IMG/VR virus record: IMGVR_UViG_3300046001_008198
Span: 1 to 64,000 of that record
Length of the DNA stretch: 64,000 nucleotides
Source: a virus
Strand: one strand, 5' to 3'
The first letter of the stretch is position 1. Every line of letters begins with the position of its first letter. Below are positions 13,101 through 31,500 of the stretch, one piece after another. The notes under the pieces were generated by a model. It was not told the DNA's origin. It worked only from the letters and a program-made list of their open reading frames with translations, and did no database searches. The translations under genes and the position numbers were made by a program.

Positions 13101-16100
13101 GAAAATGCTGACACTATGGGTACTATTCAGTTGACTACTGATTCTGATACTATGATCAGTTTTGCTGAAGATGGAACTGTTGCTATTGATGTTCGATTTG
13201 GAGGTTCAGATTTCCATGGAACTATTCCTTTTGAGTATGTAGCAGTCTCAGCATTACTACAGATTCACTTAGCGGATAATATGTCTCCTGAGCTCACAAA
13301 GCAAGCAGGTGAATTGATGGCTAAAACAAAAGAAGCTTATCTTGAGCGTCACCCAAATGCTACAGCGCAAGAACTAAAAGCTCTTGGTTTCTTTGATGAT
13401 GTTAAATATTTTTTAGGTGAGAGTTTAAGTAATGTTTGGTTGCAAGATTTAATGACTGATGTTGAAGATGTTACAAGTGCTGAACAAAATACTTTATGGG
13501 ATGGATTTGAGGAAGTTGTTGCTGGAAATCTAGGTCGTACTTTTGAAGGAAGTATATTACGAAAGGCAATTAAACTAGCTCAATTGGCTGTTACTGATGA
13601 AGCAGCTTCAATCATTGCTGAAGAACCAGCTATTGCTGCAGCAGAAGAGGAACCTGTTGTTGAAAATACAGATGATTTAAAAACAAGAGGTGAACTTCAG
13701 ATAGAACTTATTCGTTTGGAGAAAGCTTTAATTGCTAAACAAAAAGAATTAAAAGGTATCAGCTGGCTTAGAAAGAAAGCTAAGAGGGTTGCAATGAATG
13801 AAGTCTTTAATCTTCGTAATCAAGTTGTAGATAAACAAGCTGAATTAAATAGTTTAAAAAAAGATGAACCAGTTGGCGAAGTTATTCCTGTAGCCCAAGA
13901 AGTTAATACTGAAACTCAAGATGAACAAGAGGAAGACGGTAGTTTAATCATTGGTAAAAATACTGAGTTCACATCTCTTCCTCAAGACTTACAAATTGCT
14001 TTAGCAAAACTTTACATTGGTCATAAATTACTTACAGATCCTGTTTATAGAAAAGGTTTAGAAGCTGTATTGATCACCATGAATCCAGGAATGAAGTCCG
14101 TGATTGAGAATAATCAGGCTACAGGTTTTGAACAGGCAATGACACTTATTTCAGATGAACAGTATTTACAAAGCCTTGATGAAAAGGATATTAAAATAAT
14201 TGAAGGTCGAATTGGAACTAGCATTGATTATATCAAATTAGTGGGTGCTCACAATCTAAATACCACAGCTGCCGAAGTTGAGCCTACACCTGCAGTAATT
14301 CCTGCAGTTGCTCCTATAATTGCACCTGTAAGCGGACCTACCGTTGGAGCAGTAACACCTGTTACCGGACCTACTATTTCAGATCCAAATGCAGAAATTA
14401 ATGCTTTAAAGGAAGAGTTAAAACAAAAATATGAAAATAAAATTGCTAGTATAGATCCTGAGGAAGTAAGAAAAAGAAGAGGTATTAGTAAATTTGGTCA
14501 TAGTTTATTACTTAGAGCAATTGATGAAATTAAAGCAAAATTTAAAGAAGAGTATGAAAGAGAACTGAAAGCTTTAGAACAGGCTCCTATTACTCCTAAA
14601 ATATATACAACAGCAGATGTAGAAGCAGTAGTTCCGGCTGAATTATTTAAAGAACTTTCAGAGGATCAGGTTTTGTATTTCATCGATAAGTTAAACAAAG
14701 ATGAATTTGAATTACAAGAAGTCGTTGATCAAGTAGCAACTGTCAAAAAGCAAAAAGCAAGACAGGCTTCTAAAAGAAGTGGTAAAAAAGTAAAAGCTCC
14801 TGTCGATAATAAATTGAGTGTTGATTACTCAAAGTACAATCCTAATATCAAATTATTAAACTCTGGAGCTACAGCCTTCATAAAAAAAGGTACTGGAAAA
14901 AAAGATGACAAATGGATTCCTGTCAGATGGCCTAAAGGTGACATTCCATACATGAAGTATATGTTTGATAAAGAGTTACGTGAAATGACTCCTGAAGAAT
15001 TTAAAGCCTTTGTTATTTCTTATGTACAGAATGTAAAAATATTAGCAAAAAGTCTTAACCTAAATGGAGTGGCGCGATTAGATATAGAAGATCCAAATCA
15101 GCAGGCCGATGCTATTAACAATTACATTAAAGAACTTGAATCTAATAATGAATTAAGTTTGAGTGTCGTCAATGCCATCAATAAACATTTGGATAACATC
15201 AAAAGTCCTTTTGTTGTCAAACCTATTTCTAAAAGTAAGAAGTTTTTAAATCCTTTTAGAGCAGTCAAGCGAGGTACTGTTGTAGCTAAGAGTGTAAAAG
15301 TTGATTCAATAGGAGCTCAATTGGCTTACTATTTTACAGATCGTAGTAATGTATCCCAAGATGATGTAGATTTTTATAAATTATACGATTGGTTAACTAC
15401 ACACAAAGTTCATCCTGATGCTTTAAATAATCAAAAAGATAAAGCTCGTAAAAAGAATTTGTGGAATGTTAATAGTGAATATAATTCTTTTGATGGTATC
15501 GCTAATGAAGTATTTGCAGATGAGTTAGATCGTCTTCAGGATAGTGTAGATTCTGGAAAGCTGGCTGACTTAGTTGATGAGACTCTTAAAAACTACGATA
15601 GTGTTAAAGAGATGAGGCAGTATCTTATAGATCGCATGGAAGATCTTGAGAAACAAAAGAATGATGAGTATGATGAAAGAGAACAGGAGGAGGAAGAAGA
15701 TCCTGAATTGAATGATATGCAAAGAGCTCTTTATGAGTTCGAAGGAAGTGATGCGTATGCAATTTTAACAGGCCAATACGAAGGAGATATAGATTCTCTT
15801 TCCATATCCGACCGTCAGTTGCACAATCAAATCTATGGTGACAGTTATATTCAAACAGGAAGAAGTAAAGCTAAGGAAGCGGATGTTATGGCCAAAGAAA
15901 TTTGGAATACTTTGGATTCTAGTAAAAGTCAATCCTTTCAGTTAGTAGAAGCTTATAAGAAAAGAATCAACAATCCTGAAACATCTCTTGTAGACTTAGT
16001 GTTGGTAGCAACTTTGTTTAATCAGACACCAAATATATCTCAAGAGCAAGAAAAAATGTTTTGGGATATATTCCAAAAAAGCATACAATCTTCGGATTTT

Positions 16101-16433
16101 ACCGGAGAATTTCTTATATTAAAGGGGAAGGTTGTTAAAGTTGTTGGAACTCAAAAGTTTGGAGTGGTGGAAGTGCAAGATTTCGAAACTCAGAAAACTA
16201 GAAATGTTTCAGTTAAAGATTTTGCATTAGGAACTGAGAAGTTTTTAGGCTCAACAGGAGTCTTTAGTATTTCGAAACTGAATACTAAGGCTGAACCAGA
16301 AACAATTGACCCTGTTAAGATATCGTATCAATATATTTTTGATAACTTTACGGAGAGTATGGATCAGTACAAAGAGTTACCGGATGCAGAACTTAAAATT
16401 AGGATTAAAGAACAATTATCTAAATGTAAATAA
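10185..16433 (+). CDS. Large ejected/cargo protein (2082 aa) with N-terminal hydrophobic Gly/Ala segments and degenerate zincin-like domain
   Basis: GYTIGIMGAIAAEEAGLALGTALTGGLAGG segment; zincin-like region at about 13200-13460 lacking HExxH; single Cys at penultimate residue. Confidence 0.8.
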   Translation: MPENLKPSALDRLNNADFAGLSQKNEGVYLGGTNTSFDAKEVGRYTSYGSAVYGKLGYDPTKDNNKIYNANTTGGQDIARAFTGMWKLAGVGFKDTFAFGATASDNAHKDFEEVMNRYSSTRGGSSGFISNTMLSSGYTIGIMGAIAAEEAGLALGTALTGGLAGGVQVAETASLLGRAGKLLDKVGDSVNVFKKLSNVKNARTLNWIGKQGNSVTKGLLPMGESFDFLRNYDKLSDLNSLGKTLTGAGAIARDARKIYMTTSESKLEANMAKDEVRNELLDKWNKQNPGKVITDGELSRIDKTSTDVFNDVYKSNLGLIYVTNAITFNTMFKSMRHVNKAFKIADSLGMTIKKNAGKIAVDAVDDSVISLAKKKLSQVTVKSALKWTATSSMEGVQEVGQDAISEAAKGYNLGMHEDAQFKGSYYEGLAKAMTHINPETFFSGMLMGTFAAPVGHAIKGFNQMTQGGGYRQFSDSEGWAAEKKSAFETKKTQAKILTELFNRTGTFLEVDGKPQAAMSGYQEKMLEAAEKGDRKFFEDTRSSAFRVGVKALFKNGMDAELISHLEDMQGYSAEELNQAMDRTDITEDNKSEHLQKVRAYSERIKSYKSEYDRIETEHVNPVNLKALSNMDPSSKEYMQYMHAYHANEAYKDELLFSGEKIADFGNRMKVLSTGLTANNGMTTSEVSHLVSASELNMEISRLTTEVANNKEYKTEDPQLVKKLEAMKAYHKALVNYDTISDPETNFEVQKEMREAFDNYRNAVLDRTSSIPNSIDNGKHFDLLWDYMNIGDERKVLQDHVNTLLDPLHSIRFVERMTDTLAKRDANKEKLIFDSLKAFEERSASNAMMESLLGIGVIFDMNEIDDLIKRGIMPDKFFDVKTNEEIKGERLKEAYAIIASRYKKLTGKKIIASDTAYAGRSRSESDERTAAQLVTKFGGGKKNTPIKVSTFINRLLKSPELTLTERSILLKLQENADTMGTIQLTTDSDTMISFAEDGTVAIDVRFGGSDFHGTIPFEYVAVSALLQIHLADNMSPELTKQAGELMAKTKEAYLERHPNATAQELKALGFFDDVKYFLGESLSNVWLQDLMTDVEDVTSAEQNTLWDGFEEVVAGNLGRTFEGSILRKAIKLAQLAVTDEAASIIAEEPAIAAAEEEPVVENTDDLKTRGELQIELIRLEKALIAKQKELKGISWLRKKAKRVAMNEVFNLRNQVVDKQAELNSLKKDEPVGEVIPVAQEVNTETQDEQEEDGSLIIGKNTEFTSLPQDLQIALAKLYIGHKLLTDPVYRKGLEAVLITMNPGMKSVIENNQATGFEQAMTLISDEQYLQSLDEKDIKIIEGRIGTSIDYIKLVGAHNLNTTAAEVEPTPAVIPAVAPIIAPVSGPTVGAVTPVTGPTISDPNAEINALKEELKQKYENKIASIDPEEVRKRRGISKFGHSLLLRAIDEIKAKFKEEYERELKALEQAPITPKIYTTADVEAVVPAELFKELSEDQVLYFIDKLNKDEFELQEVVDQVATVKKQKARQASKRSGKKVKAPVDNKLSVDYSKYNPNIKLLNSGATAFIKKGTGKKDDKWIPVRWPKGDIPYMKYMFDKELREMTPEEFKAFVISYVQNVKILAKSLNLNGVARLDIEDPNQQADAINNYIKELESNNELSLSVVNAINKHLDNIKSPFVVKPISKSKKFLNPFRAVKRGTVVAKSVKVDSIGAQLAYYFTDRSNVSQDDVDFYKLYDWLTTHKVHPDALNNQKDKARKKNLWNVNSEYNSFDGIANEVFADELDRLQDSVDSGKLADLVDETLKNYDSVKEMRQYLIDRMEDLEKQKNDEYDEREQEEEEDPELNDMQRALYEFEGSDAYAILTGQYEGDIDSLSISDRQLHNQIYGDSYIQTGRSKAKEADVMAKEIWNTLDSSKSQSFQLVEAYKKRINNPETSLVDLVLVATLFNQTPNISQEQEKMFWDIFQKSIQSSDFTGEFLILKGKVVKVVGTQKFGVVEVQDFETQKTRNVSVKDFALGTEKFLGSTGVFSISKLNTKAEPETIDPVKISYQYIFDNFTESMDQYKELPDAELKIRIKEQLSKCK

Positions 16434-19400
16434 ATGAAAGTTTGTATCACTGAAACATCTTTGGAATTATTTGGAAATTTTTTCAAGAGAGCAATTCAAG
16501 CACAGCTAGAAAAAGATCAGACATACGATATGATTGTGAAAGAGCTTTATAAAGAAGCTCTTCTCGCATTTAATAAAGATGGAAATTCTGAAGACTCTGA
16601 AGTAATATTGCAACATTTATTTGTAATTCCTCAATTGATAACAGCTCAGTTTGGAAGTAAGCCTGGTTCAGTTACAGCAGAAGTAATGGCAGCCGCAGGT
16701 AAAGATGCTTCATTTGTATATGAACAGTTGCAAACTCCTACATTAGAATCTATTCAGGGAGTAGTAAATCATTTTGCTAAACTCAGTAATGAACAATCGG
16801 TTGAAGTAGATGCTGGTGTTGAACCTCAATGGTTTGATGCAATATCTACTACATTATTTAGACTTTCTTTTCAAGGCTCATTACTTAATCCTCAATCAGG
16901 AACTTATCATGATAACATCGATGATCCTGCTAAAGTTTTAGAGAACAATGTTATTCGTAAGGTTCTGAATAATCAGAATGATAAAGGGTATAAACTTCAA
17001 ATGATGACTCTTGCTCAAGCAAAAGCATTGGGTAATGTTTCAGATACAACTAACTATCGTGATGAGCAATTACCTGTAATGGTTTTAGTAAATGAGTCGG
17101 GTAAAGTTTTACGGTTTGATGAACAAGGAACTGTAACCGAAGATGGTGGAATTCCCGTGTTTCCAATTAAAACTAAAGCTGAACAGTTTAATTACAATAA
17201 GGAGTTACTGATCGAACAAAATATGAGTATCGCTGGTGTTACCAGAGAAGCAGCTGTGAAAATGGCTAATGATTTAATTAAATCTTATTTAGACAATGTG
17301 TCATACGGTTTATCTCAAATTGCTGCAGGTACTGAAGTCTTTGCTGATATTGATATGGCTGAAAGTCAAGTTGGATTTTTACAATTGAATACTCTTAATT
17401 CTACACCTCTTAGAGATGTGACAAATTTATCAGAGTTAGAATTTAAAGTATCTGTTGGAGCCAAGCAATCTAAACAACTTCTTGTATTTGCGCCAAATAG
17501 TTCAAAACCTTGGAGTTTGGATAGAGGAACATTAGATTCTTTATCTCCTGAAATCACTGAGGCTTTACTGGAATTGATGACCAATCCTTATTTGAAAAAA
17601 GATGGATCCTTAATTTCTCTTACAGAAAGATCTAATATGATTTCGATGTATATTCAACAAGGTGATTTTGGTCATGTTGTATTTGAAAAAACAGATAATA
17701 AAAATAGTGGTGCTAAGTACAATGCTTATGCCAGAGAATGGTTTAAAAGTGCAACTATTGGTGGTATCAAATATAATATTGAAACACCTGCAGAAATTGA
17801 AATATTCAAGCAAGCCTTTGTGGATTTTACAAAAGCTTACAAATTTAAACCTCATAGTCCTTTAGCTGCTATAAGTGATACCGATCACAGACTTGTTTCT
17901 GATATGGAGAGTGTAACCAAACAGGGGCAAATTGTTAAACAAGAAGCAGGACATGTCATTGGATATAAACCTGATATTAGTTTTACCTTATCTGAAAAAG
18001 CTCAACTTGATGATTTAATTCAGGTCGTTATGGGTGTTAAAGATGGAGAACTTGTGATGAGTAATGTAATGACGCGTATGAGTCATATTACAAATCATGC
18101 GATGAATAATATTGTAACCAATAAAAATGGAGAAATCCGCGGAGCTGGTTCTTATATAGCATTTGCTCCAATTAAGCAGAAGGTTGTATTTGATAAAACA
18201 AAACTTCCTCCTCGCCGTATGAGTCTTGAGCAAAGAAATCGTGCCAGTGCTGTTCAACCTTTTGAGGAGACAGAAGCGGACACATGGTTCAAGAATCATC
18301 CAATGGCTGGAGTGCTTAATTTAATTGTTACGGATCAACTTAATTCAAAAGGAAAAGGTTTTCTTGCTGATTTTTTCATGAATACAATTACTTTGTACAA
18401 AGGTTCTGATAAAACTTCTTTATACCATGAGGTTTATCATGCTTATTTTAATGGAATTCTTAGTAAAGCTGAACGCGATGAAGTATATGGTGAACTTAGA
18501 AATCAAAAAGGTTCATTCACTACAGTAGTTAATGGTAAAGCTAAGACTTTGAATTATTCAGATGCTACTGATTTAGAACTGGAAGAATTTTTGGCAGAAG
18601 AATTTAGAAGTTATGCGCGTAATGAAAGCAAGTATAACAAGCAGCCTGAAAGTAAAATTGCGAGATTCTTTAAGTATCTCTTAGAATTGTTTAATTCATT
18701 TTTTGGAAACAGAACTCATGCTGAAGTTAGAGCTTACGGTTTACCTGAATTAGTGGAAACTTCTTTCAGAAATTTATACAAAGGTAACATCGATGCTTCG
18801 AAATTTGTAACTCCTATGATGAGTGAAGCGTTGAATCAATCTGTAGAAACAGGTATGGATTTTACGCATCAGGAAGTTTCTATTGTAATGGGTTCCATGA
18901 ACTCAATGGTTTCAGATTATATTCAGACCGTTCTTAATAAATCAATTAATGCAGATCAAATTTCTGACTTAATCTGGTATAGACAAATAATGGTTACTAC
19001 GAATGTAGAATCAGAAGAATATCAAACAGCTTTAGGTTTGTATAATGAAAGTATGGGTAATTCTACAACTCATGGATACGGTGTTTTTCAATTACAGGAT
19101 CCAGAACTTTTTGGAGAAATGTTAATGAGTCATATTCTACCTGTGTTTGAATATCAGTTAGAGGTAGCAAAAGCAGAGTTAGAAGAAGATCCAACTTCTA
19201 TTCTTGCCCAAAATAATGCTGATCTATTAAAAAAAGTATGGGATAATTTTGGAGATGCTACTATAAATCCTATTAACCATCTAGGGAAAACAGATAGTAT
19301 TATTGGATTATATTTAAATAATTATGCATTTATTAAACCAGATGCTTCTTTTGGAGCAGCTTTAGATGTAGATACAAATGATTTCAATGATGCTGAGGCT

Positions 19401-22400
19401 GTTGAAGCTTTTTATAAAGACAACAACAATACATCACCTTTTGATTTAGCTGATGAGCATACAAAGATTTTATTGTCTATGATTCAAGGATATACTCATA
19501 ATGGTATGGGTACACCTATAATTAATAGATTGGGTATTCCAACACTTCGGAATCCTAAAATTATTATGGGTAAAATATTAAAACTTACAGCAAATCAAAT
19601 CACTCCTGAGGATATTCTTGATGCATTAAAAACAGCAGCATTAAAAGATAAAGAGATTGCTCAATTGGTTGCAATATTAGGACCTCTCCGTGCTACTATG
19701 GAAGAAGGTGTGGATAATTCTATATCCGTACAGATTACAGAGCATGAGCAAAAGCAGTGGAGTGGTTTCTGGGGAAGTATTAACAAACCATCAGTTCCTT
19801 TATTGCAGACAACTATTGAGCGTACAAAAATTAAAACTTTTGATGAGGAAGGGAATGAAATTGAATCTTCAGAAGGAACTTTAGAATTGAGATCAGGAAG
19901 AGTTGGAACACAGGCTAGTCAGATTATTAGAACATGGGGTGATAATTTTAATTACAATTCAACAGCTCAGGGTGCATTTTATAAAACTGCTTTAGATTTA
20001 AGAGTTTTAGATATGGAGTTGTTGTTAAGTACTTATGAATCATTAGGGTTTGCACCTTTAGATGCGACTAATTCTTTTGATATGTTCCATACAACAAAAC
20101 AAGTTGGTCGTAAGTATAGAAAATCTGTAAGAGCTGCAATGGCAATGCCGATGTATGAAGCAGATCCATTTGGTTTTCTTGAGCAATTAGGAATGATTCT
20201 TCCTCACACCGATGAAATAAGAGAAATCTTAATGGTTGGTTCAGCAGAATATGATATTCCTGGAGGGTTATTAAATAACTTAGTTGAAGTACTTCGAAAT
20301 AGACCATCTGGTTATTCAATAGAATCCTTTGATGATTTATTTAAAGCATACGATTATATAAATTCAGCAGGTGAAACTGTAACTGTATCACCGGAAGGTT
20401 ATAAAAAAGAGTTTGCAAAAATATCTGAATACTTTGATGACTCTCAAGTAAGTAGTATGGCTCGAAGAGCTGATGGTGAAACTCAATCTGAGCGTCCAAT
20501 GCATTCATCCCTTACTGTTGCTATAGCTACAATCAATTCAGCTAAAAGTTATCAGGAATTAATCAGCACTCCAGGTATGGAGTTTTGGGATATTAGTAAA
20601 AATCCTATAATTGGATCAAGTATTTTGACTCAGATGTTCCGCTTGGATAATCCTGAATTCTATGGTAAGAGAAATCAAAATATCAAACTACATCTTAATT
20701 TATTATCAGGATCCAAATTGATTAATGGTACTGCAGAGAATGGTGTTTCACCAATTGATTCTGATAATACCACTAAGTTTATTACAGATGTATATGACAC
20801 GTTCTCTGGACATCAGGAAATATTGCGGGCTGCTGATAAATCTACATCTCTTACATTCTACAATACTTTTATTAGAAAAGGTTCTACTAAAGCTGAAAAA
20901 GGTGCTATTGTTCCGATGGAAGAATCTCAGTACATGTTTGGCAAGAATTATAAATCGACTTCTTTATCTTTCTACAATCAGTTCGAAAATCATTTAGAAG
21001 CTGAGTTAATTAGAATTACACGCATTAAGAATTTGAAAAAAGAAATTAAGGATAATCCAGATAAGACTTATGCTTTCGACAAAGCTTTTATGGATCGAGG
21101 TGAAGGCTTTAATGTATTCGATGTTATTCTTCAGGATGATTCTTTACGAGATGCTTTGACAAGTTTAAATCTTAATGAGAATTTTATAATTGGAAAGATT
21201 CTTCCTAAAGAAGTTAAAGCAATGATTGATAAAGAGCTGCGTAATTATTTCATTATGAGGTCTTCTGAAATCTTACAAGATAAAGGAAAGCTACTACCAG
21301 TGATCGATAGTGTTAAAGAAAAGCACGGGGCTAAACAATCAAATGAAGAATTCAAAAAGGATTTACTTGACATGTTCACTGTAAATAACTTTATTCAAAA
21401 TCTTAATTACGCTGCTTTATTCTTAGGAGATTCAGCTTTATATAATGTTGCGGGTGAAGATTATCACAAGCGTATTGCTGGTATGATTTCTACAGGTACA
21501 CTATTTAGATTTGATAACTCTTGGTTTGATCATGTCAATACTCCTGAGTTCGGATACGATGCCTTTGCTAAAAAGCATTTATCTGAGAACATGGAAAGAA
21601 TCCAGGAGCGTAGACCTGATTATAAAAAGCCTGTTGCTAGAACATATATAGGTTATTTGAATACAGCTGTAATTCGAGAATCACAACATGACTCTGTGTA
21701 CGCGGATCATTATATGAAGATGGCAGGAATTGATGCTACTGAGTATAAAAATATGAAAGAATCCGATGGAGCTGGTTGGATAACAATGGACTCTTACAGA
21801 ACCATGGCTAAATCTTCTAATGATTGGTCACAAGGACAAGAAGATGTATTCCAAGCAATGCTTAAAGGTGAGGAAATCGATTATGATAAAGCGATTGCGA
21901 CATTCCCAGTTCGTAAATATCAGTACTACGGTCCTGTAACTACAGATAATAACCGTGCTGATGCAGGAAAATCTCCTGACTTAGGAATGATTGCCTTCCA
22001 CAAATATTCATTAATGCCTCTTATTCCTTTGGCTATTAAGGGGACAAAGCTTGAACAGTTGAATGAGAAATTGATGGAAGACGGTGTTGACTATGTAACA
22101 ATGGCAACAGGTTCGAAATTATCCACAGTTTCAAAAATCAATAGTGATAATTTAAATTCTGCTGCAGTGTATGATGATTTGTATTCTGAGGACAGAGAAA
22201 TTTTATTTGATACAGATATCACAAATAATAAAATACATGTTCGGTTCTTAAAAAGACAAGTACATATTGCTGAAGGATTCAAGGGTAAAATTAATTTGCC
22301 TTCTCAGATCCGTAAAATGATTTATCTGGGTGTATCTAACAACGGTGTTCCTATTGACAGCGTTGCTGATATAGATAATATCGCTGATAATGAGTGGACA

Positions 22401-25400
22401 AACATTAAAAAATCTCTTAAATTTAATTCTCGATTATCCAACTGGTTAGCTGAAACAGAACATACTTTAGCTATGTACCAAAAAACTTTGAAAGAAGAAT
22501 TGTTGGCTGATATTGGAATGACTGAACAAATAAGTAAAGATCCTGCAGGAAATGATGTTGTAAGTTACAGCGGAAATAATGATAAGCTAAAAGAATACAT
22601 TCAGAATCAATTGCGTAGTAAAGAATTACTTCCTGCTGAGGTTGAATTTATTATCGATAAAAATACGGGAGGTCTTCGAAGTGATTTATCTACATCGTTG
22701 AATGCCGAAACTATTGAAAAGATTTTGGTAACAATGATTGATAAAAAACTTCGCCGAATTAAAGTAACAGGAGAAGGATTTATTCAAGCTGCTGGATCTA
22801 TGTGGGAGCGGGTAGATTTTAAAAAGCCGACTGCTGAAGATTTAGAAACTTTTGGAACTAATGGTTTAAAAACATATCATCTAATTGATAAAGATGGCAA
22901 CATCATAACTGATCCTGCTCGTAAAGGAGAAGCTGTTCGTATTTCCAAAATGGAAGTAAAAATTGCAATGCAAGGAAGTTTTAAATTATTATTTGATCTG
23001 GATGACCATACTGGGAAAAAGATTAAAGTAATGAAGACTGTTACTAATTCAAAAGGGGTTACTAAAAACATTATTGATATGGAAGCGAGTATCGCTAATT
23101 TGAATAATGCTTTGAGAAATCAGGAATGGCGAGATAAACATGAACCGCTACTTACTTTAGCAGGTCCTCGTATCCCAACACAGGCGCAAAACTCTTTGGA
23201 GGCTGCAGTTATTGCTGAATTTTTACCACCATCTGCAGGAAATATAATTATTCTTCCTTCAGATATTGTTGCAAAAACAGGAGCGGATTATGATATTGAT
23301 AAGTTGTTCTTGAGCTATCCTAATATTGTTAAGATTGGAAAGTCTATTGAGTTACAGAAACATATTCCTGGTATTACCGAGTCAGATGATGCATTGAATA
23401 CTCAAATTGATAATTTGTATTTAGAAGCAGCGGGGATAGGTACTCAAATAGATGCTATTTATAAAAAGAAACAAGTAAAATTTAATTCTCTTTCTGTTGA
23501 AAAAGAAAATATTCGTGAATTAATTGCCGATCAGTTTTACATACAATCTTTGGATTTAGATAAAATTAAACAGCTGCAGATAAAAGTTACTAATATTCGG
23601 ATGAAGGAAGGTATGTATGAAACAATGCCTGTATCTCAAATGAAAGATGAATTACAGAAAACAATTAATCAGATTGATGTATTAATGGAAGCTCAAGAAG
23701 AGGTTGAGAAAAACATTAAGAATTATATGATTGCTGCTTTCGGAACCGATAAATATAATGAGTTGTTCATTGCTGAAAATAATCAAATATCAGAATTGGA
23801 GAATCAAAAACAAGCTGTTTATAATAAACTGGATTCGGTAAAGCGTGCTCTTTATGGTAAGAGTACTAAGGGCTTACAGAATGACATCCTAAGATTATTT
23901 GCAGAGCGTATTACAATGCCTGATAATTTTGGCGAATTGGTTAAGGCGAATCACACTCGTAATACAAAACCTGTGTTTGCTGCTAATAGTACACCTGAAA
24001 CAGTTAATGATGATATTATTTTTGAAGAGCTACAGGACTCTAATCAAATGGCCTATGATAAAAGAAATCGTGGTAAAAAAGGTACACCTGCAGGTATAAA
24101 AACTATTGCTAGTACAACCATCTTTGATTACATGTACAACTTACAAAAGCACGAAGAGAATACTGTTGGTATGGAATCTTTGGGAATCGCTGCTGTAGCA
24201 TCAACATACCATGCTGTATTTACACGTATGGGGGCGGCATTAGAAGGAGTACTTCCAGGAGAGAATGAAAGCATCCGAAAGGTTGTTCAAGATCACTTAG
24301 CGTCAATGAAAGATAAAAGTGTTAAAAGTAATTTGGAAGCTTTTAATTCATTGACAAAAAATTATAATAGCCGTACTTTGAGATTCGCTCACAATAAAAT
24401 TATTGATGAAACAGGTATTCAAATATCATTAGGTTCAATTAAGAGTTCTGATGGTAAAGTAATCTCGGATCTTATCGGCCAGTTGATTAATGGATACGTG
24501 GATGTTGCCAAAGATGCATGGATTTTTAATATTCAAGGTAATAAAGAAAACACACCTCAGTTATTATTTATGATAATGACAGGAGTTCCAATCAAGAGTG
24601 CTATTTATTTCTCAAGTCTTCCAATGATTAAAGAATACAATCGTATGAAGAAAGAATTGGTAGGTGTTTACGCGGGACTTGCTAACGGAAGTGGTTCAGT
24701 TTACACAAAAAGCAATGCTAAAAAAGAAGTTATTCGTAGATTGATTTCTAAATATCAGGATGCTATTCCAAAGGAATTGAAAGGAATCGATGTTGCTGAA
24801 AATCACAGGGCTCTTGCAGCATTGACCGAAGGGGAATTCGATCTTGCTAGTATTAAAAACATGATTAAAGAAAAAACTCCTTCTTACAGACAGTACGAAG
24901 CATTCTTGCATTATTTGGAAATAGAAGAGATGGCTGATGATATCAGTCAGTTCGAATCTGTAACTAAATTTGATACAGCGCAAACAGCGTCATTAAGTGA
25001 TGCTCAGAACCGTATTAATACAACTGCAGCATATCGTGATAAAACTTCTAAAGGAAGACGATCTGTAGTTCCTTCATCTTGGTATAAAGATTACTCAACT
25101 ACTTCTCCTGGTATCATGAATAATGATGACTTTACTATTAAAATGTTTAGTCAATACTTCCGATTAAGAAATCATCCACTGGTACTTAAAGCTAGTGCTA
25201 TGAAACTATTGGATAAAGATAAGAATGAAGCTTTGGGGTATGATATATCAACCCTGAGAAATGATTATAAGAATGACTTCTTATTTTACCTGTATCAAAA
25301 TGCAGTATGGAGTGATTCGTCTTACAACGGATTCACATTTAAAAGTGATGCTACTTTAGAGGATGAAGTGTTAATTGATGAAGAAGGAATGGTAATGTAT

Positions 25401-27935
25401 TACAATCCTGAAAAATTAAGACATGGTAGGACTCAGCATAATTATGAATTTAGCACAGCTCAAAAGAACAGTGATCCTACAAATCCAACTTACTTCTTTC
25501 CTACAGAGGCAATGTATTTGGCTTATAGATTGGAATTAGGTAAAGCCCGAATGATGAGTGAGGAAGAACTAAAAGAAAAGTATTCATATATGGTGTCAGA
25601 AAAACTTGCTGGTACAACCAGTGGTGAAAGTTTAAGAAGACGTATTGCATTATATAAGTCCAATAACCACATAGCATTCTTTAATTATCGATGGGGAATG
25701 GCAGGAATTCTTAAAGGTTTGGAAAGAAATAATCCTGAATTAGCTGGACAGTACGATCTGATTGATCACATCCGTGCTGATTATGATGCCAAAACTAAGA
25801 AGAGTAACTTAAAGCTGACTCAGGTTAAGGATGCAGACTTTTCTATTGTGTACCGCGAGAACTTAGAGGCACTGAAATCGTCTAAGATTCCTGAAATTGC
25901 AGAGTTCTTTAGTAAGTTTGAACACATGGCTATTATGCAAACAGGAATGAATAGAAGATCTACTTTTGATTTGACTCCTATTGTTGACCAAGAGAAGTTG
26001 CATTCTGTTATTGATTCCAATTATGGAATTGAATCTATTATTCAAGCATTGGATAGAGATTTGAATGCTGTAATAAAAGGTAAAAAGAAAATAGCTGAAG
26101 TTCCTTATTTAGGAGATTTCGATACTAAGTTTAAAGAGATGGTTGTTTCTTCTTATAAGCAGCGGGTCCGAGGTCACAATTATGTATCCGATGGTTCTAT
26201 TAAGGCTGCTACTAAACAAGTATCCGGAAAGAATGATAAGGTTGCTTTGATTTCCTGGTCGTATGTTGAAAATGAAATTGGAAATAATTTTGAAGAGCTT
26301 TCTAAAGTATTGGATAAAAGCTCCATGTTTACAGCAAAAAGAATCAATGAAGCTTACCTTCGTAAGATGCAGAGTTTACCTCAAGTTTATTTGGTTAAAG
26401 AAAAAATTGTTGCTCCTACACCAGCATTGCAAGAAAAGTTGGATACTCTTTTACAATTGTATTTTGGAATTGATAACACAGGTAGTATTCCTACATGGAA
26501 TGTTGTTGGTGCAGGACAAACAAAAGATAATATGTCTATTGCCGACAGTAAAACTTTAATGGAGCGTCATGGTATTAAAGATGAAAAGATGGCTAATATT
26601 TCTTCCAAAGCTATTGCTAGATCTGTTTCTGTAAAAGACAGTAGGCTTTCATCAACACAATCGTATATCGATGTTATCAATAAGAAGTATCCAGAAAGAT
26701 TAGCTGGAAATGTAAACTCTAAGTTTAGTTCTAAAGATAATGTGTGGATATTTGGTGCAGGTATTTTCAAAAATGCTTATGATGGTGTTTTAACAGAAGC
26801 TGAGTTTACTAAAAAAGTCAAGGATGAATTTGATGACTACTACGTTACAGAAATTGAGAAAGCTCTGAAAGCAAAAGTAAAAGTATTTAACATTGGTGTT
26901 GCTTCAGGTATTGACCAAATGGCTCGTGAGCACCTTAAAGAAAAAGGATTTATTGAAGTATATAAATACACAGCAGGTGGAGTTTATGTGACTTTATCTA
27001 CTCCTGAACTTGCATCTAGCGATATGTACGATGTTACTGCTCCTGAAATAGTAATGAGTAAATACTCAGGGTTTGGTAAATTTAAATCCGCTATTTATAA
27101 CAACAAGGTTATGACAACTATAGCAGGTACTACTAGCGAGAAGTTACTTAAAAATTCACCACTTCCTTATGTTGGTCCTTTTGTAGAATCTTTTTTGAAT
27201 ACACTATGGAATGCTCCAGGACAATATCAATACGAGATGGGCTTGCTTATGGCGAAACCAGGAAGGATTGTAATCGGCGATAGTATCATTGAAAGATTTG
27301 CTGAAGTGTATCTTATGCATAAGCGAAAAACTTATGGTAAAAAAGCAGCGCCTGTAGGTGTTGGAATTTCTTCTTTGTCAGAAGGTCAAAGGGCTGCTCT
27401 TAATAAAGAGAAACCTAATCAACAGCAATCTTTAAATATTTATTTTAGCACAAAAGAAAATGCTGATTTGAGTAATTTTGCTGAGAGACCTATAACTCTT
27501 AATGGTCAAACATTTAGAACACCTGAAGGTGCTTTTCAAGCTATGAAAATATTTTTTACAAATGCTGTTTTATTAGGTACTCCTGCCAGTAAAGAAAATT
27601 TAGAAATACTTGAAAAATTAAAAACTGCAACAGGAGCTGAAGCAAAAAGTTTAGGAACTAAAATTAAAGATTTATCAACTGCAACTTGGGATAGAGATTC
27701 ATCAGGAGTAATGAAAAATATACTTACACTTTCTTTTGAACAAAACCCACAAGCTTTAGCTAAACTTTTTGCTACCGGAAATGCTGTTCTTACACATACC
27801 CAAGATAAAGGTAAATGGGGAACAGAGTTTCCAAAATTACTTATGGAAGTAAGGAGTGAATTAAGATCTGAAGAATCTAATCCAAATGATATCACCCAAG
27901 AAGATGTTGATAAAACCCCAAATTGCGAAGGATAA
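16434..27935 (+). CDS. Virion-encapsidated DNA-directed RNA polymerase (single-chain, two-barrel, crAss-like), fused to zincin, SLOG-like and NADAR-like domains (3833 aa)
   Basis: GPRIPTQ and KTGADYDIDKLF (DYDID at 23286-23300, cf. DFDID of crAss-like vRNAPs); upstream DYHKRIAGMISTG and SDGAGWIT; HEVYH (18426-18440) + EEFLAEEF; NADAR motifs at 27431-27866. Confidence 0.9.
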   Translation: MKVCITETSLELFGNFFKRAIQAQLEKDQTYDMIVKELYKEALLAFNKDGNSEDSEVILQHLFVIPQLITAQFGSKPGSVTAEVMAAAGKDASFVYEQLQTPTLESIQGVVNHFAKLSNEQSVEVDAGVEPQWFDAISTTLFRLSFQGSLLNPQSGTYHDNIDDPAKVLENNVIRKVLNNQNDKGYKLQMMTLAQAKALGNVSDTTNYRDEQLPVMVLVNESGKVLRFDEQGTVTEDGGIPVFPIKTKAEQFNYNKELLIEQNMSIAGVTREAAVKMANDLIKSYLDNVSYGLSQIAAGTEVFADIDMAESQVGFLQLNTLNSTPLRDVTNLSELEFKVSVGAKQSKQLLVFAPNSSKPWSLDRGTLDSLSPEITEALLELMTNPYLKKDGSLISLTERSNMISMYIQQGDFGHVVFEKTDNKNSGAKYNAYAREWFKSATIGGIKYNIETPAEIEIFKQAFVDFTKAYKFKPHSPLAAISDTDHRLVSDMESVTKQGQIVKQEAGHVIGYKPDISFTLSEKAQLDDLIQVVMGVKDGELVMSNVMTRMSHITNHAMNNIVTNKNGEIRGAGSYIAFAPIKQKVVFDKTKLPPRRMSLEQRNRASAVQPFEETEADTWFKNHPMAGVLNLIVTDQLNSKGKGFLADFFMNTITLYKGSDKTSLYHEVYHAYFNGILSKAERDEVYGELRNQKGSFTTVVNGKAKTLNYSDATDLELEEFLAEEFRSYARNESKYNKQPESKIARFFKYLLELFNSFFGNRTHAEVRAYGLPELVETSFRNLYKGNIDASKFVTPMMSEALNQSVETGMDFTHQEVSIVMGSMNSMVSDYIQTVLNKSINADQISDLIWYRQIMVTTNVESEEYQTALGLYNESMGNSTTHGYGVFQLQDPELFGEMLMSHILPVFEYQLEVAKAELEEDPTSILAQNNADLLKKVWDNFGDATINPINHLGKTDSIIGLYLNNYAFIKPDASFGAALDVDTNDFNDAEAVEAFYKDNNNTSPFDLADEHTKILLSMIQGYTHNGMGTPIINRLGIPTLRNPKIIMGKILKLTANQITPEDILDALKTAALKDKEIAQLVAILGPLRATMEEGVDNSISVQITEHEQKQWSGFWGSINKPSVPLLQTTIERTKIKTFDEEGNEIESSEGTLELRSGRVGTQASQIIRTWGDNFNYNSTAQGAFYKTALDLRVLDMELLLSTYESLGFAPLDATNSFDMFHTTKQVGRKYRKSVRAAMAMPMYEADPFGFLEQLGMILPHTDEIREILMVGSAEYDIPGGLLNNLVEVLRNRPSGYSIESFDDLFKAYDYINSAGETVTVSPEGYKKEFAKISEYFDDSQVSSMARRADGETQSERPMHSSLTVAIATINSAKSYQELISTPGMEFWDISKNPIIGSSILTQMFRLDNPEFYGKRNQNIKLHLNLLSGSKLINGTAENGVSPIDSDNTTKFITDVYDTFSGHQEILRAADKSTSLTFYNTFIRKGSTKAEKGAIVPMEESQYMFGKNYKSTSLSFYNQFENHLEAELIRITRIKNLKKEIKDNPDKTYAFDKAFMDRGEGFNVFDVILQDDSLRDALTSLNLNENFIIGKILPKEVKAMIDKELRNYFIMRSSEILQDKGKLLPVIDSVKEKHGAKQSNEEFKKDLLDMFTVNNFIQNLNYAALFLGDSALYNVAGEDYHKRIAGMISTGTLFRFDNSWFDHVNTPEFGYDAFAKKHLSENMERIQERRPDYKKPVARTYIGYLNTAVIRESQHDSVYADHYMKMAGIDATEYKNMKESDGAGWITMDSYRTMAKSSNDWSQGQEDVFQAMLKGEEIDYDKAIATFPVRKYQYYGPVTTDNNRADAGKSPDLGMIAFHKYSLMPLIPLAIKGTKLEQLNEKLMEDGVDYVTMATGSKLSTVSKINSDNLNSAAVYDDLYSEDREILFDTDITNNKIHVRFLKRQVHIAEGFKGKINLPSQIRKMIYLGVSNNGVPIDSVADIDNIADNEWTNIKKSLKFNSRLSNWLAETEHTLAMYQKTLKEELLADIGMTEQISKDPAGNDVVSYSGNNDKLKEYIQNQLRSKELLPAEVEFIIDKNTGGLRSDLSTSLNAETIEKILVTMIDKKLRRIKVTGEGFIQAAGSMWERVDFKKPTAEDLETFGTNGLKTYHLIDKDGNIITDPARKGEAVRISKMEVKIAMQGSFKLLFDLDDHTGKKIKVMKTVTNSKGVTKNIIDMEASIANLNNALRNQEWRDKHEPLLTLAGPRIPTQAQNSLEAAVIAEFLPPSAGNIIILPSDIVAKTGADYDIDKLFLSYPNIVKIGKSIELQKHIPGITESDDALNTQIDNLYLEAAGIGTQIDAIYKKKQVKFNSLSVEKENIRELIADQFYIQSLDLDKIKQLQIKVTNIRMKEGMYETMPVSQMKDELQKTINQIDVLMEAQEEVEKNIKNYMIAAFGTDKYNELFIAENNQISELENQKQAVYNKLDSVKRALYGKSTKGLQNDILRLFAERITMPDNFGELVKANHTRNTKPVFAANSTPETVNDDIIFEELQDSNQMAYDKRNRGKKGTPAGIKTIASTTIFDYMYNLQKHEENTVGMESLGIAAVASTYHAVFTRMGAALEGVLPGENESIRKVVQDHLASMKDKSVKSNLEAFNSLTKNYNSRTLRFAHNKIIDETGIQISLGSIKSSDGKVISDLIGQLINGYVDVAKDAWIFNIQGNKENTPQLLFMIMTGVPIKSAIYFSSLPMIKEYNRMKKELVGVYAGLANGSGSVYTKSNAKKEVIRRLISKYQDAIPKELKGIDVAENHRALAALTEGEFDLASIKNMIKEKTPSYRQYEAFLHYLEIEEMADDISQFESVTKFDTAQTASLSDAQNRINTTAAYRDKTSKGRRSVVPSSWYKDYSTTSPGIMNNDDFTIKMFSQYFRLRNHPLVLKASAMKLLDKDKNEALGYDISTLRNDYKNDFLFYLYQNAVWSDSSYNGFTFKSDATLEDEVLIDEEGMVMYYNPEKLRHGRTQHNYEFSTAQKNSDPTNPTYFFPTEAMYLAYRLELGKARMMSEEELKEKYSYMVSEKLAGTTSGESLRRRIALYKSNNHIAFFNYRWGMAGILKGLERNNPELAGQYDLIDHIRADYDAKTKKSNLKLTQVKDADFSIVYRENLEALKSSKIPEIAEFFSKFEHMAIMQTGMNRRSTFDLTPIVDQEKLHSVIDSNYGIESIIQALDRDLNAVIKGKKKIAEVPYLGDFDTKFKEMVVSSYKQRVRGHNYVSDGSIKAATKQVSGKNDKVALISWSYVENEIGNNFEELSKVLDKSSMFTAKRINEAYLRKMQSLPQVYLVKEKIVAPTPALQEKLDTLLQLYFGIDNTGSIPTWNVVGAGQTKDNMSIADSKTLMERHGIKDEKMANISSKAIARSVSVKDSRLSSTQSYIDVINKKYPERLAGNVNSKFSSKDNVWIFGAGIFKNAYDGVLTEAEFTKKVKDEFDDYYVTEIEKALKAKVKVFNIGVASGIDQMAREHLKEKGFIEVYKYTAGGVYVTLSTPELASSDMYDVTAPEIVMSKYSGFGKFKSAIYNNKVMTTIAGTTSEKLLKNSPLPYVGPFVESFLNTLWNAPGQYQYEMGLLMAKPGRIVIGDSIIERFAEVYLMHKRKTYGKKAAPVGVGISSLSEGQRAALNKEKPNQQQSLNIYFSTKENADLSNFAERPITLNGQTFRTPEGAFQAMKIFFTNAVLLGTPASKENLEILEKLKTATGAEAKSLGTKIKDLSTATWDRDSSGVMKNILTLSFEQNPQALAKLFATGNAVLTHTQDKGKWGTEFPKLLMEVRSELRSEESNPNDITQEDVDKTPNCEG

Positions 27936-28522
27936 TGAGTTGTACATTAGAATCAAGACAAGCGGCTGTATTGGATACAGTTGCTGATATTTTTAAGAGT
28001 AAAACGGCTGACCTTGCTTTAGAGCAGGTTGGCCCATACTCTTTTATAGCTACTCCAAATAAGAGTAACACTCCTAGAAATTTATTAACCCGTGTGGCTA
28101 AAGCTCAGAAGGATGTATCCGATGTACTGGAAAAGAATCCTGAGTTCGGTGCTAAGTTTGCTTTTGGATGGGTGACTAGGAATTCAGATAATCCCCGTAA
28201 AATAAAGATAGGGTTAAAGGTTCCTGATAATTACACAAAGCTTCTGGAAGTAAAGCTTGGAAGTAAAAGTTTAGCTGATGTAAATAAAGCATTGGCTCAT
28301 GAAAGAAATTATAATTATTTTCGTGACAGAGGATTGTTTGAACAAGAGCAGCGTGAAAACACAATCGATGATAAGTTTGACCAGGAGGAGGAGGAAGAAT
28401 TGGAACTGGTTACGGATCAAGAGACAGGCCTTCCTGATTGGAATTATGATGCAACTAATGATGTATCTGTTCGAATTAATGATGAGGACTTAAATGAATT
28501 AATGAAATCTAAAAATTGTTAA
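27935..28522 (+). CDS. Small protein (195 aa) between vRNAP and 1942-aa protein, Cys at both termini
   Basis: ATG overlaps vRNAP stop (TAATG); MSCTLES...MKSKNC*; acidic C-terminal half. Confidence 0.8.
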   Translation: MSCTLESRQAAVLDTVADIFKSKTADLALEQVGPYSFIATPNKSNTPRNLLTRVAKAQKDVSDVLEKNPEFGAKFAFGWVTRNSDNPRKIKIGLKVPDNYTKLLEVKLGSKSLADVNKALAHERNYNYFRDRGLFEQEQRENTIDDKFDQEEEEELELVTDQETGLPDWNYDATNDVSVRINDEDLNELMKSKNC

Positions 28523-28523
28523 G

Positions 28524-31500
28524 ATGGGAATGTGCTTTCGTGATAAAAATGAAGAAACCAAGTTTAAAATTCTAGCAGGTGTTGTTGGTGAAAAAGAAGC
28601 ATGGAGAGATTTCTTTGAACAGAATGGTAATGTTCGTCCACCTTTAGTTGTTGTTAAAAAAATTGAAGATTTAGGCAATCAACCTGTAGCTATCGATGAA
28701 TTTCAGGAATATTACGAGAGTCTTCCTGAGGCAATTGATGAGCTACCAGTTGAACAAATCAACAATCTTTTGGCTGCAAATAGCAGAAAGGAAAGCATGC
28801 GTGCTGTGGAAACATTAAGTAAGCAGTTAGGCATTGAAGCAATTATTGTTACTCCACAGGAAGCGATGGAAATGAAGAAGTCTTCGGATCCAGGAATGGG
28901 TTTTTTCAGATCAGGAAAAGTTTATCTTGTCGAAGGAGCTTTTGATGCTGATACAATCTTCCATGAATTTTCACATCCTTTGGTTAAGAGTTTATCCAAA
29001 AATAATCGAGAGGTGTTTGAGTCTTTATTCAATGAAGTAATGGCATCGGATTTAGGGTTTCATTTAGTTTCTGGCATGGAGTCTTCTTCTTTAGATCCTG
29101 CAAGTAATGAATACAAGGAAGAGGTTATAGTAAGAGCAATGGAATTAATTAATCGGGAAGTTGTGGCTAAACCACAAAGCTGGTTAGATAAATTATTTTT
29201 TGCTTTTCGCCAGATGTTGAGAAAGGTTTTTAAAATTGATGCCTCTAAGCTGGCTCCTACAACAACACTCAAGCAATTGGTTACGATGCTTAATCAAGGC
29301 GATAGTTTTAAGTTAGACTATGAGGCTTTGAATGCTGATGATACTTTGATGCTCAAGATGGAGTCAGATGAATTAATGAAAAGAATTAATCAAGCTGGTG
29401 CTGATACTGCTCAAAAAATAATCAATGAGTTTGCTGATATGATTAAAGAGCAGGTTGCTGCAGCAGGAAAGCCAAATTCTATTTACTCTCAAATTGCAGA
29501 AGGTTTTACTAATGAAGAGAATGATGGTCTTCTACAAAACCTTCGTAAGATTACTGAGGTATTGAGCACTTCAGACAAATCCCGTAAAGCTGTCAAGTCA
29601 TTATCTGCTAATGTCCGAGATCAGGAAATAAATGAAGTTGTTACCAAACTGGAATCTATATTCAAAAGCATTGCCAAAGGAGAGGAAGTATTCAAAATGA
29701 TTCAGGAAAAAATGGCGATTCTTGAAAAGAAAGATGGAGTCATTGAAGATTTGGACGCGTTGCATGCACTTGGTCAGTATGCGCTGCAGTGGGATAACTT
29801 CTTGAATAAAACTTTGGATAAAAATGCACTCTACATGAATTTGTATAGTGATAATCAAGAAACAGCTTTTACCACTAGAATGACAACACTTGCCGAAAGT
29901 GCTACCAATTTAACCAGAGATATTGCAATTCAAAAAGCCCGTCTTGTTTCCAAGATAATAAGCGATCAGGTGAATAAAGAAAAAGCTCCTGTTACCGCTG
30001 CTTATTTGAAAAACCTAGATCAGTTGAGAGATTCAGGAAATATGAGAGATTATGATCGCATGCATACTGAATTTTATGGACTTTCTCCAGATGAGATGTT
30101 GGAATACAATCGATTGAACTCTGCCACTCCTGGAACCTTAACTGTAGCACAGCAGGAACGCTATACTAATTTTAGATTTTTAAAAACTCAAGGAACCGAA
30201 GTTACTCCCGATACAATAATGGATATGCTTATGGGACTTTCTCCTGATGCGGTTGCTTTAAATAATATTATTGAGGGTGCAGCTAACAGTCAGGATATAG
30301 TTGTAGGTGGGCTTCATACATTGGTTCGTAATCAAATGAATGAACTTCATGGTATTATGAATTCAAATCAAGCTGAGATGCTTAATAAAATTAATCCTCA
30401 CTTGAAAGCTACTGGATGGGATAAGAAAAGACATTTCGGAACCAATGGTATTGGTAGTGCTTTAAAGCAGGTTACTAATGTTGGACGACTTGTCAATAAT
30501 GAAATAGAAGATTTCCACGATTATCAATTTATGAATAACTTCAAAGATTGGGAAAAGGATATCAGTGTGTTACAGCATTCTATTAAATTGGCGGCCGATG
30601 AATATAAAAATTCTGGATTAGATGAGCATTACGATGAATACTTGAGAGCTACTGAAGCACTGGAAGATTTTAACAGGGCTTACATGCATCAAAAATATGT
30701 AGATGAGTATTACGATGTTCAGAAACTATTAAGAGGTGACATCGGTAGAGAAGTGCGTAAAAGACTTCATTTGTTTTATGGTGAAATGAATGAGATGCAG
30801 GATCTTGAATTACCTATTTGGGATCATCGTCAAACAGATCACATAAAAAATAAGTGGGTTGAGCTACGATGGATGAGTAGTATATACAATGCAGATGGAA
30901 CTGAGAAAGTTGGAAGAGAAAAAGAAATTGCTGAAAGATTGGCTGAATACAATGAGAAATCTCAGAAGTTTAAAGAGTCTGTTCGAAAAGAAGGAGTTTT
31001 TGAATTAGCTTACAATACTTTTGTTGAGAACTGGTTGGATGAAAATCCTGATCATACAATTGGAAGTTCTGCTTTCGAAGGGGCTCGTAATAGTTGGATG
31101 CGTAAGAATACTACTGTTCAAATTGATGAGGCTTACTATGAAAAAAGAGCTGCTCTTTATGATGAGAAGTCTGTCATATTAAAGAAGTTTAATGAGTTGA
31201 ATAAAGATATTGCTGATGTTGGAGATTTATACAAACAGATTTATGATTTGAATAAAAAGTCTAAAGATGATCAAGGTCAGTATGATGGGACAGCTCTTTC
31301 TGCAGCAAATCAGATCCGAATCAGGGATATGCATATTGAAATCGAAGAAGCAACTGAATTGTATTATCGAAGAAATGGATTAACTAAAGAGGAATACCGT
31401 GAGTACCGTGACATCATGATATATTTTGATACCAATGGTCATCAGTTTGAATCACCTACGGCTGAGTCGAGATACATGCAGCTTAAAGAATTGATTAATG

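Follow-up and report, generated by a model that had tools for sequence, protein, structure and literature searches.

The subject of this analysis is a block of four abutting genes, including the gene of a giant virion RNA polymerase, on the plus strand of the IMG/VR virus record IMGVR_UViG_3300046001_008198, a single phage record of 125,219 base pairs (bp) of which the first 64,000 nucleotides (nt) are referred to as the window. In gene order, the proteins are designated A, B, L and C. Protein A (10185-16433; 2082 amino acids (aa)), the first in the chain, ends in ...LSKCK with its sole cysteine (Cys) at residue 2081, two from the C-terminus (codon TGT, 16425-16427), and faces across junction 1 the start MKVC... 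of the polymerase B (16434-27935; 3833 aa), in which Cys4 (TGT, 16443-16445) is one of only two cysteines. The other, Cys3831 in the terminal ...PNCEG (TGC, 27924-27926), forms the upstream half of junction 2, beyond which the small protein L (27935-28522; 195 aa) carries Cys3 (TGT, 27941-27943). At its opposite end L terminates with Cys195 (TGT, 28517-28519), and this residue faces Cys4 (TGC, 28533-28535) of protein C (28524-34352; 1942 aa), the last in the chain, which has a lone internal cysteine, Cys1768 (33825-33827). Both outer ends of the chain, the N-terminus of A and the C-terminus of C, are Cys-free. The four proteins thus comprise 8,052 residues with seven Cys, six of which are located at most four residues from the three internal junctions. 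This exact count bears out a first-pass annotation that had noted seven Cys in about 8,050 residues, six of them facing each other across the junctions, and reading of the open reading frames (ORFs) confirmed its codon coordinates, the two cysteines of B and the cysteine-free outer ends. Under uniform placement, the probability that at least six of seven Cys fall within four residues of any terminus is 2.7e-14; the recount therefore upholds the terminal enrichment, and chance as the source of the pattern was rejected. According to the ORF listing and direct reading, the gaps between A/B, B/L and L/C are 0, -1 and +1 nt. The stop codon at each of the three junctions is TAA and the second junction is a 1-nt overlap into a different frame, on which grounds read-through of the stop codons into a polyprotein was rejected.

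The identity of the block is given by the polymerase and its surroundings. Within B, the sequence DYDIDK (23286-23303; residues 2285-2290) holds the catalytic DxDxD motif of two-barrel polymerases, in which D2285, D2287 and D2289 do not vary among 21 aligned homologues, nor do the columns H665, E666 and H669 of an HExxH motif (HEVYH, 18426-18440). Towards its C-terminus B carries a NADAR domain (27453-27830), recognized by Pfam and by a PDB sequence search through the structure of Escherichia coli YbiA. Translated searches (tblastn) connected B with the polymerases of crAss-like phages, namely the IAS virus RNA polymerase, Carjivirus gp44 and cr108_1, with E values from 4e-7 to 6e-9, the matches being short stretches around the catalytic motif only; the phi14:2 gp66 chain gave no match to B in the PDB sequence search. 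As core matches were obtained by tblastn, yet A, L, C and the upstream virion genes had zero matches in PHROGs and a megablast search of phages with this region returned nothing, the lineage can be considered crAss-like and divergent. Protein A occupies the position of crAss001 gp47 and phi14:2 gp67, 5' of the polymerase, and the gene order A-B-(L)-C places giant partners on both flanks of the polymerase with HExxH motifs in B and C, the HEFSH motif near the N-terminus of C (28962-28976) resembling the zincin-bearing partner phi14:2 gp65. On motifs and gene order, the four genes are assigned to the cargo block, with the polymerase in it, of a crAss-like phage that is divergent. The equivalent blocks gp67-gp66-gp65 of phi14:2 and gp47-gp50-gp49 of crAss001 share with the window the giant DxDxD polymerase, the two giant flanking partners, the zincin motifs and the terminal cysteines; the window differs by its great divergence, four pieces instead of three and the NADAR tail on the polymerase. 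Mass-spectrometric detection of cargo-block proteins in virions is confined to phi14:2 and crAss001 (bioRxiv 10.1101/2020.03.07.982082; PMC10172136), and neither of the two studies mentions terminal cysteines; gp47, gp49 and gp50 do not feature in the supplementary material of the crAss001 study.

Two further observations concern the polymerase itself. Among the homologues P0005-P0026, the C-terminal module can be swapped, with NADAR present in many, PF18760 or PF25176 in others and the AlkB-like PF13532 in P0012 and P0022, the latter of which has helicase domains in addition; the terminal Cys always follows this module. Such modules look like injected counter-defence or repair enzymes. The polymerase of cr108_1 (L078, 21398-21689) is annotated as two coding sequences with the break inside the catalytic motif (...AKAGSD / LYDIDK...) and a gap of 290 nt, as if an intron or comparable element had inserted at the DxDxD site.

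The terminal cysteines are highly conserved. In a protein collection, 23 full-length homologues of B with 24-41% identity and a length of 2,660-4,800 aa were found, most of which have exactly two Cys, one at position 3-5 and one 1-9 residues from the C-terminus, and the column of Cys3831 is invariant in the alignment of 21 homologues. For a systematic view, 76 related IMG/VR loci were retrieved with their flanks, ORFs were called and non-redundant junctions between genes on the same strand were scored for Cys within a window of 10 residues. Cysteines were present on both sides at 131 junctions, on neither side at 55 and on one side at a single junction, located between two unrelated small Cys-rich proteins. 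The expectation that orthologous junctions retain their terminal cysteines, with outer ends devoid of them, is thereby borne out. A Fisher test on the junction table gives p = 5.5e-47 with shared ancestry ignored, so that the independent split and fusion events described below weigh more than this number. Junction cysteines stand 1-10 residues from the C-terminal end, with 2 as the commonest distance, or at positions 3-6 of the N-terminal end, and are encoded by TGT 227 times and by TGC 36 times. In 214 distinct chain proteins with 524,020 residues altogether, 283 Cys fall into the terminal windows and 32 elsewhere (0.006%). When 54 C-termini of A (last 300 residues; mean identity 13%) and 54 N-termini of B (first 330 residues) were aligned, with a mean identity of 13-15% over the two alignments, the cysteine was the sole invariant column in each alignment. 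Beside the junction Cys, no conserved His, Asp or Glu at a fixed spacing was observed in the 131 junctions. Most homologues of C possess the N-terminal Cys only, often in the context MxxCPN. As a separate observation, CPN after the N-terminal Cys of the last chain protein is very frequent in the loci L001-L076 as well as in L078, L082, L083, L085 and L086, and MxxCPN recurs in sequences ranging from environmental contigs to Suoliviridae and Steigviridae of the human gut, a pattern from which C of the window (MGMCFRD) departs.

The same arrangement is found in cultured phages. In phi14:2, gp67 has one Cys, which is the last residue (Cys1797), the only Cys of gp66 are Cys3 and Cys2179, and gp65 has none besides Cys3. 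In crAss001, gp47 has one Cys three residues from its end, gp50 has Cys5, Cys2404 and an internal Cys1334, and gp49 has Cys5 only. In further families, p-crAssphage gp45 (...SFSCM) faces gp44 (MSCGN...), the ends ...NLCK and MANVCPN... face each other in cr108_1, and a facing Cys pair is equally present in most of the Suoliviridae checked, among them cr52_1, cr118_1, cr4_1 and cr10_1. Judged on these genomes, the rule of facing terminal cysteines holds in nearly every crAss-like phage checked. In two of the phages, the partners are not even neighbours on the same strand: gp47 of crAss001 is encoded on the strand opposite to gp50-gp49 and the A homologue gp058 of IAS virus, which ends in Cys, is likewise on the opposite strand, with the terminal Cys still kept in an A gene 11 kb from the start of B. 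Because these opposite-strand A genes keep their Cys, stop-start coupling and any nucleotide effect of the gene junction are excluded, the use of both codons and the variable distance from the end having equally led to rejection of a translational-coupling or nucleotide motif. In the comparison of these coding sequences, the rule acts at the level of the protein and not on the genes. Of the remark in the first-pass annotation that the genes abut as expected for translational coupling, the abutment is correct, and coupling as the cause of the pattern does not survive.

The most telling evidence comes from changes in gene architecture. Protein A is split into A1 and A2 in locus L002 and, separately, in L040/L076, with Cys on both new ends; A1 and A2 align with the two halves of intact A, which is without Cys at the break. 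Protein L, for which word-based searches and viral contigs provided no relatives, was connected only by synteny, phmmer and jackhmmer to a family comprising the small proteins of the window, L001, L002 and L014. This family matches residues ~30-155 of the unsplit C in L040 and L076, proteins whose only Cys is at position 3, with none at the domain boundary. The 195-aa protein, initially regarded as a dedicated linker, is thus a split-off N-terminal domain of C. At another position, a 574-aa gene and a 1934-aa C in L064 together match the undivided C of L017 (2352 aa) over its whole length; in the break region, C of L017 has no nearby Cys and L064 has one on each side. Fusions provide the reverse case. 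Suoliviridae have A and B fused into a single protein, and cr118_1 gp14, with the fusion point at about residues 1760-1920, has zero Cys in residues 1-2040, as has the A-B fusion of cr52_1 in residues 1490-2307. p-crAssphage gp44 is a B-C fusion that kept the N-terminal Cys and has none at the C-terminus. All positions of fusion points are estimates from BLAST offsets. These single-gene forms (the A-B fusion in cr118_1 gp14 and the B-C fusion in p-crAssphage gp44) display the same domains in the same order in one continuous chain; the cr118_1 and cr52_1 fusions differ from the window in that a peptide bond is in place of the Cys pair and no Cys is at the fusion point. Altogether, at least six separate changes in architecture are consistent with the rule, the splits having a new Cys pair and the placeable fusions having none. 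On the simplest reading of these alignments, the Cys pair would do the job of the missing peptide bond.

A structural precedent for such a bond exists, in distinction to the first-pass annotation, which knew of no description of a comparable mechanism. In the cyanopodophage A4 (Anabaena phage A-4L), cryo-electron microscopy of the pre-ejectosome has shown a disulfide between Cys1715 of gp27 and Cys5 of gp26, which holds the C-terminal helix of gp27 inserted into gp26 (PNAS 2025, PMC12002296). According to the GenBank record, gp27 has 1717 aa with one Cys 3 residues from the end, gp26 has 1114 aa with one Cys at position 5, and the two genes are 5 nt apart. As in the window, genes of large internal or ejection proteins are adjacent, show the same facing terminal-Cys signature and are nearly devoid of other Cys; different from the window, there is one link between two proteins and no polymerase is involved, and the A4 work states neither a general rule nor split or fusion behaviour (PMC12002296). 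With A4 gp26-gp29 as queries against all chain proteins, phmmer gave no hit at E <= 1; the likeness between A4 and crassviruses is one of mechanism and not of ancestry. Among crassviruses, inter-subunit disulfides have been described in the tail and gp57 of crAss001 virions (PMC10172136). Searches of the open literature on cysteines, disulfides and ejection in crAss-like phages and Crassvirales brought up no description of the terminal-Cys rule. What is already known is therefore the single link of A4; what is new is a multi-link chain that includes a polymerase, together with the split and fusion rule.

The conservation of the cysteines, their behaviour upon splits and fusions and the analogy to A4 argue that A and B, B and L, and L and C are probably connected head-to-tail by disulfides in the virion. 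Cys2081 of A would be bonded to Cys4 of B, Cys3831 of B to Cys3 of L and Cys195 of L to Cys4 of C, each bond substituting for the peptide bond of a polyprotein, so that one quasi-linear strand of ~8,050 residues, a pseudo-polyprotein, would arise. Bonds might arise after assembly or lysis, once the ends concerned have docked. The location of the cysteines so near to the chain ends would keep the product quasi-linear, and internal Cys may have been removed to avoid mispairing into branched or looped products that cannot be threaded; such products would be blocked at the tail because its constrictions require partial unfolding of the cargo. During storage and tail passage the links would keep the pieces together and in order, and reduction in the host cytoplasm would cut the links and free the polymerase. 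This second part, ordered threading with release by cytoplasmic reduction, is plausible, with a chance that we infer to be slightly short of even. More tentative still is the wider proposal that crassviruses and, convergently, at least one cyanophage possess a reducible pseudo-polyprotein, in which up to six giant proteins, each translated separately, would form a strand of ~8,000 residues threaded in fixed order, each split's peptide bond would be replaced by a disulfide and reduction would switch on the injected polymerase.

Several points weigh against a disulfide-linked chain. Assembly takes place in the reducing cytoplasm and gut relatives live without oxygen. In this phage genome, neither an oxidase of the Erv1/ALR type nor thioredoxin was found, which eliminated a phage-encoded thiol oxidase of this type as the bond maker. 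The biochemistry and structures available for crassviruses show none of these bonds. On the other hand, the existing work could not have seen them, because phi14:2 gp66 was purified and crystallised with dithiothreitol or tris(2-carboxyethyl)phosphine and the cargo was not resolved in crAss001 (PMC10172136). Furthermore, the A4 bond has been described as a staple of a folded pentameric ring, and formation of a thread was not shown there. Among the sequences, Cys2220 of p-crAssphage gp44 is near the estimated B-C fusion point (~2250-2550), so that this fusion is a less clear-cut case than the rest. In the fused giant B protein of cr273_1 (L087, 16900-17160), the last Cys is 50 residues from the end, before a low-complexity tail; p-crAssphage gp47 (L077, 4706-7279) ends in ...QSCR and is unpartnered, as the next protein has no Cys; and gut phages carry more internal Cys. 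These exceptions to the rule are mild. A more general objection is that sequence alone cannot fix the pairing.

This objection leads to the alternative that survives best, although it is improbable, namely a different arrangement of disulfides, in which B and L would each be closed on themselves from N- to C-terminus and A, through its C-terminal Cys, would be bonded to the N-terminal one of C, or homotypic pairs would form between copies of the same protein. The numbers of N-side and C-side cysteines are always equal, and cyclised middle proteins with an A-C bond give the same counts as a chain. Such an arrangement demands, however, that partners be rewired with every gene split, whereas the chain model just adds one pair. 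Moreover, the pairing in A4 is between the upstream C-terminus and the downstream N-terminus, and a middle protein that could be cyclised is missing from two-piece systems such as A4, cr118_1 gp14/gp15 and p-crAssphage gp45/gp44.

Slightly less probable again is a link through a shared metal ion, with the facing cysteines forming a thiolate-metal-thiolate bridge that would be feasible under reducing or oxygen-free conditions. Cytoplasmic assembly, the many relatives that are gut phages and the lack of an encoded oxidase would suit such a bridge. It has to operate, however, with a single Cys per terminus and without the conserved His, Asp or Glu at fixed spacing that would complete a site, features that also led to rejection of a multi-ligand site of the zinc hook or knuckle type. 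In addition, the six, eight or ten Cys of longer chains are not divisible into four-ligand sites, and the A4 counterpart of the signature is a disulfide. Of the initial suggestion that the proteins may be joined by disulfides or shared metal sites, the disulfide part is hence supported by conservation, splits and fusions and A4, and the metal part is not, in the absence of conserved co-ligands.

Least probable of the three is a role that does not link proteins, be it a signal for processing, packaging or modification at the ends or a nucleotide need of stop-start coupling, as might be suggested by the abutting genes and the zincin protease motifs in B and C. This role is at odds with the persistence of the cysteines in the opposite-strand A genes, with their variable distance from the end and with the use of both codons; and, unlike an end-specific signal, Cys never occur at the outer ends and are missing from fused forms. 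Split inteins with trans-splicing were dismissed, as cysteines 1-4 residues from the ends leave no room for intein halves and no intein Pfam hit was obtained.

Other ejection systems put a head-to-tail disulfide chain into perspective. The vRNAP gp50 (3500 aa), gp51 and gp52 of phage N4 have zero Cys in 4,294 residues, and gp15 and gp16 of T7 have zero Cys, with one Cys at position 2 in T7 gp14. As in the window, T7 gp14/gp15/gp16 and N4 gp50/gp51/gp52 are large ejected proteins that are encoded by adjacent genes and are almost Cys-free; different from the window, they have no facing terminal Cys pairs and so no covalent concatenation. Ejected proteins have thus generally had their Cys removed, in what looks to be a common trait of such proteins in podophages, and terminal pairs that face each other are a specific addition. 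A more distant parallel can be seen in the AB toxins such as diphtheria toxin, where a polypeptide is translocated on one disulfide tether and freed by cytosolic reduction. As the two toxin chains are cut from one precursor and are unrelated to the crass proteins, the parallel does not go beyond analogy.

Among the Crassvirales are the viruses that reach the highest abundance in the human gut, and a covalent chain of cargo proteins would bear on how these phages keep nearly a megadalton of protein, a polymerase included, in store and inject it. In the structural atlas of crAss001, in which the cargo was not seen, the order of ejection is said only to depend on packing and mutual interactions (PMC10172136). 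A simple sequence rule predicts covalent end-to-end links and, at the same time, would explain both the near-total lack of other cysteines and the interchangeability of fused and split gene forms. Reduction of the links is also a candidate for the redox signal by which the self-inhibited polymerase becomes active.

The surroundings of the block provide additional observations. Other virion genes upstream (501, 849, 678 and 713 aa) encode zero Cys, and Cys amounts to roughly 1-2% in the products of the minus-strand replication genes. Upstream of the chain, an otherwise Cys-poor cargo protein (6324-8027) has a close internal pair, Cys125/131; its counterpart in L001 (116-1786) likewise has two internal Cys, and comparable internal pairs are found at 390/398 in crAss001 gp45 (L079) and 369/378 in phi14:2 gp69 (L080 g069). 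This pair could represent a conserved disulfide or metal site of its own. At the far end of the phage record, outside the window, a run of plus-strand proteins (108816-119320) contains 2-7% Cys, with 6.7% at 113718-114212. In contrast to the Cys-free internal proteins, these are likely disulfide-rich external tail or receptor-binding proteins.

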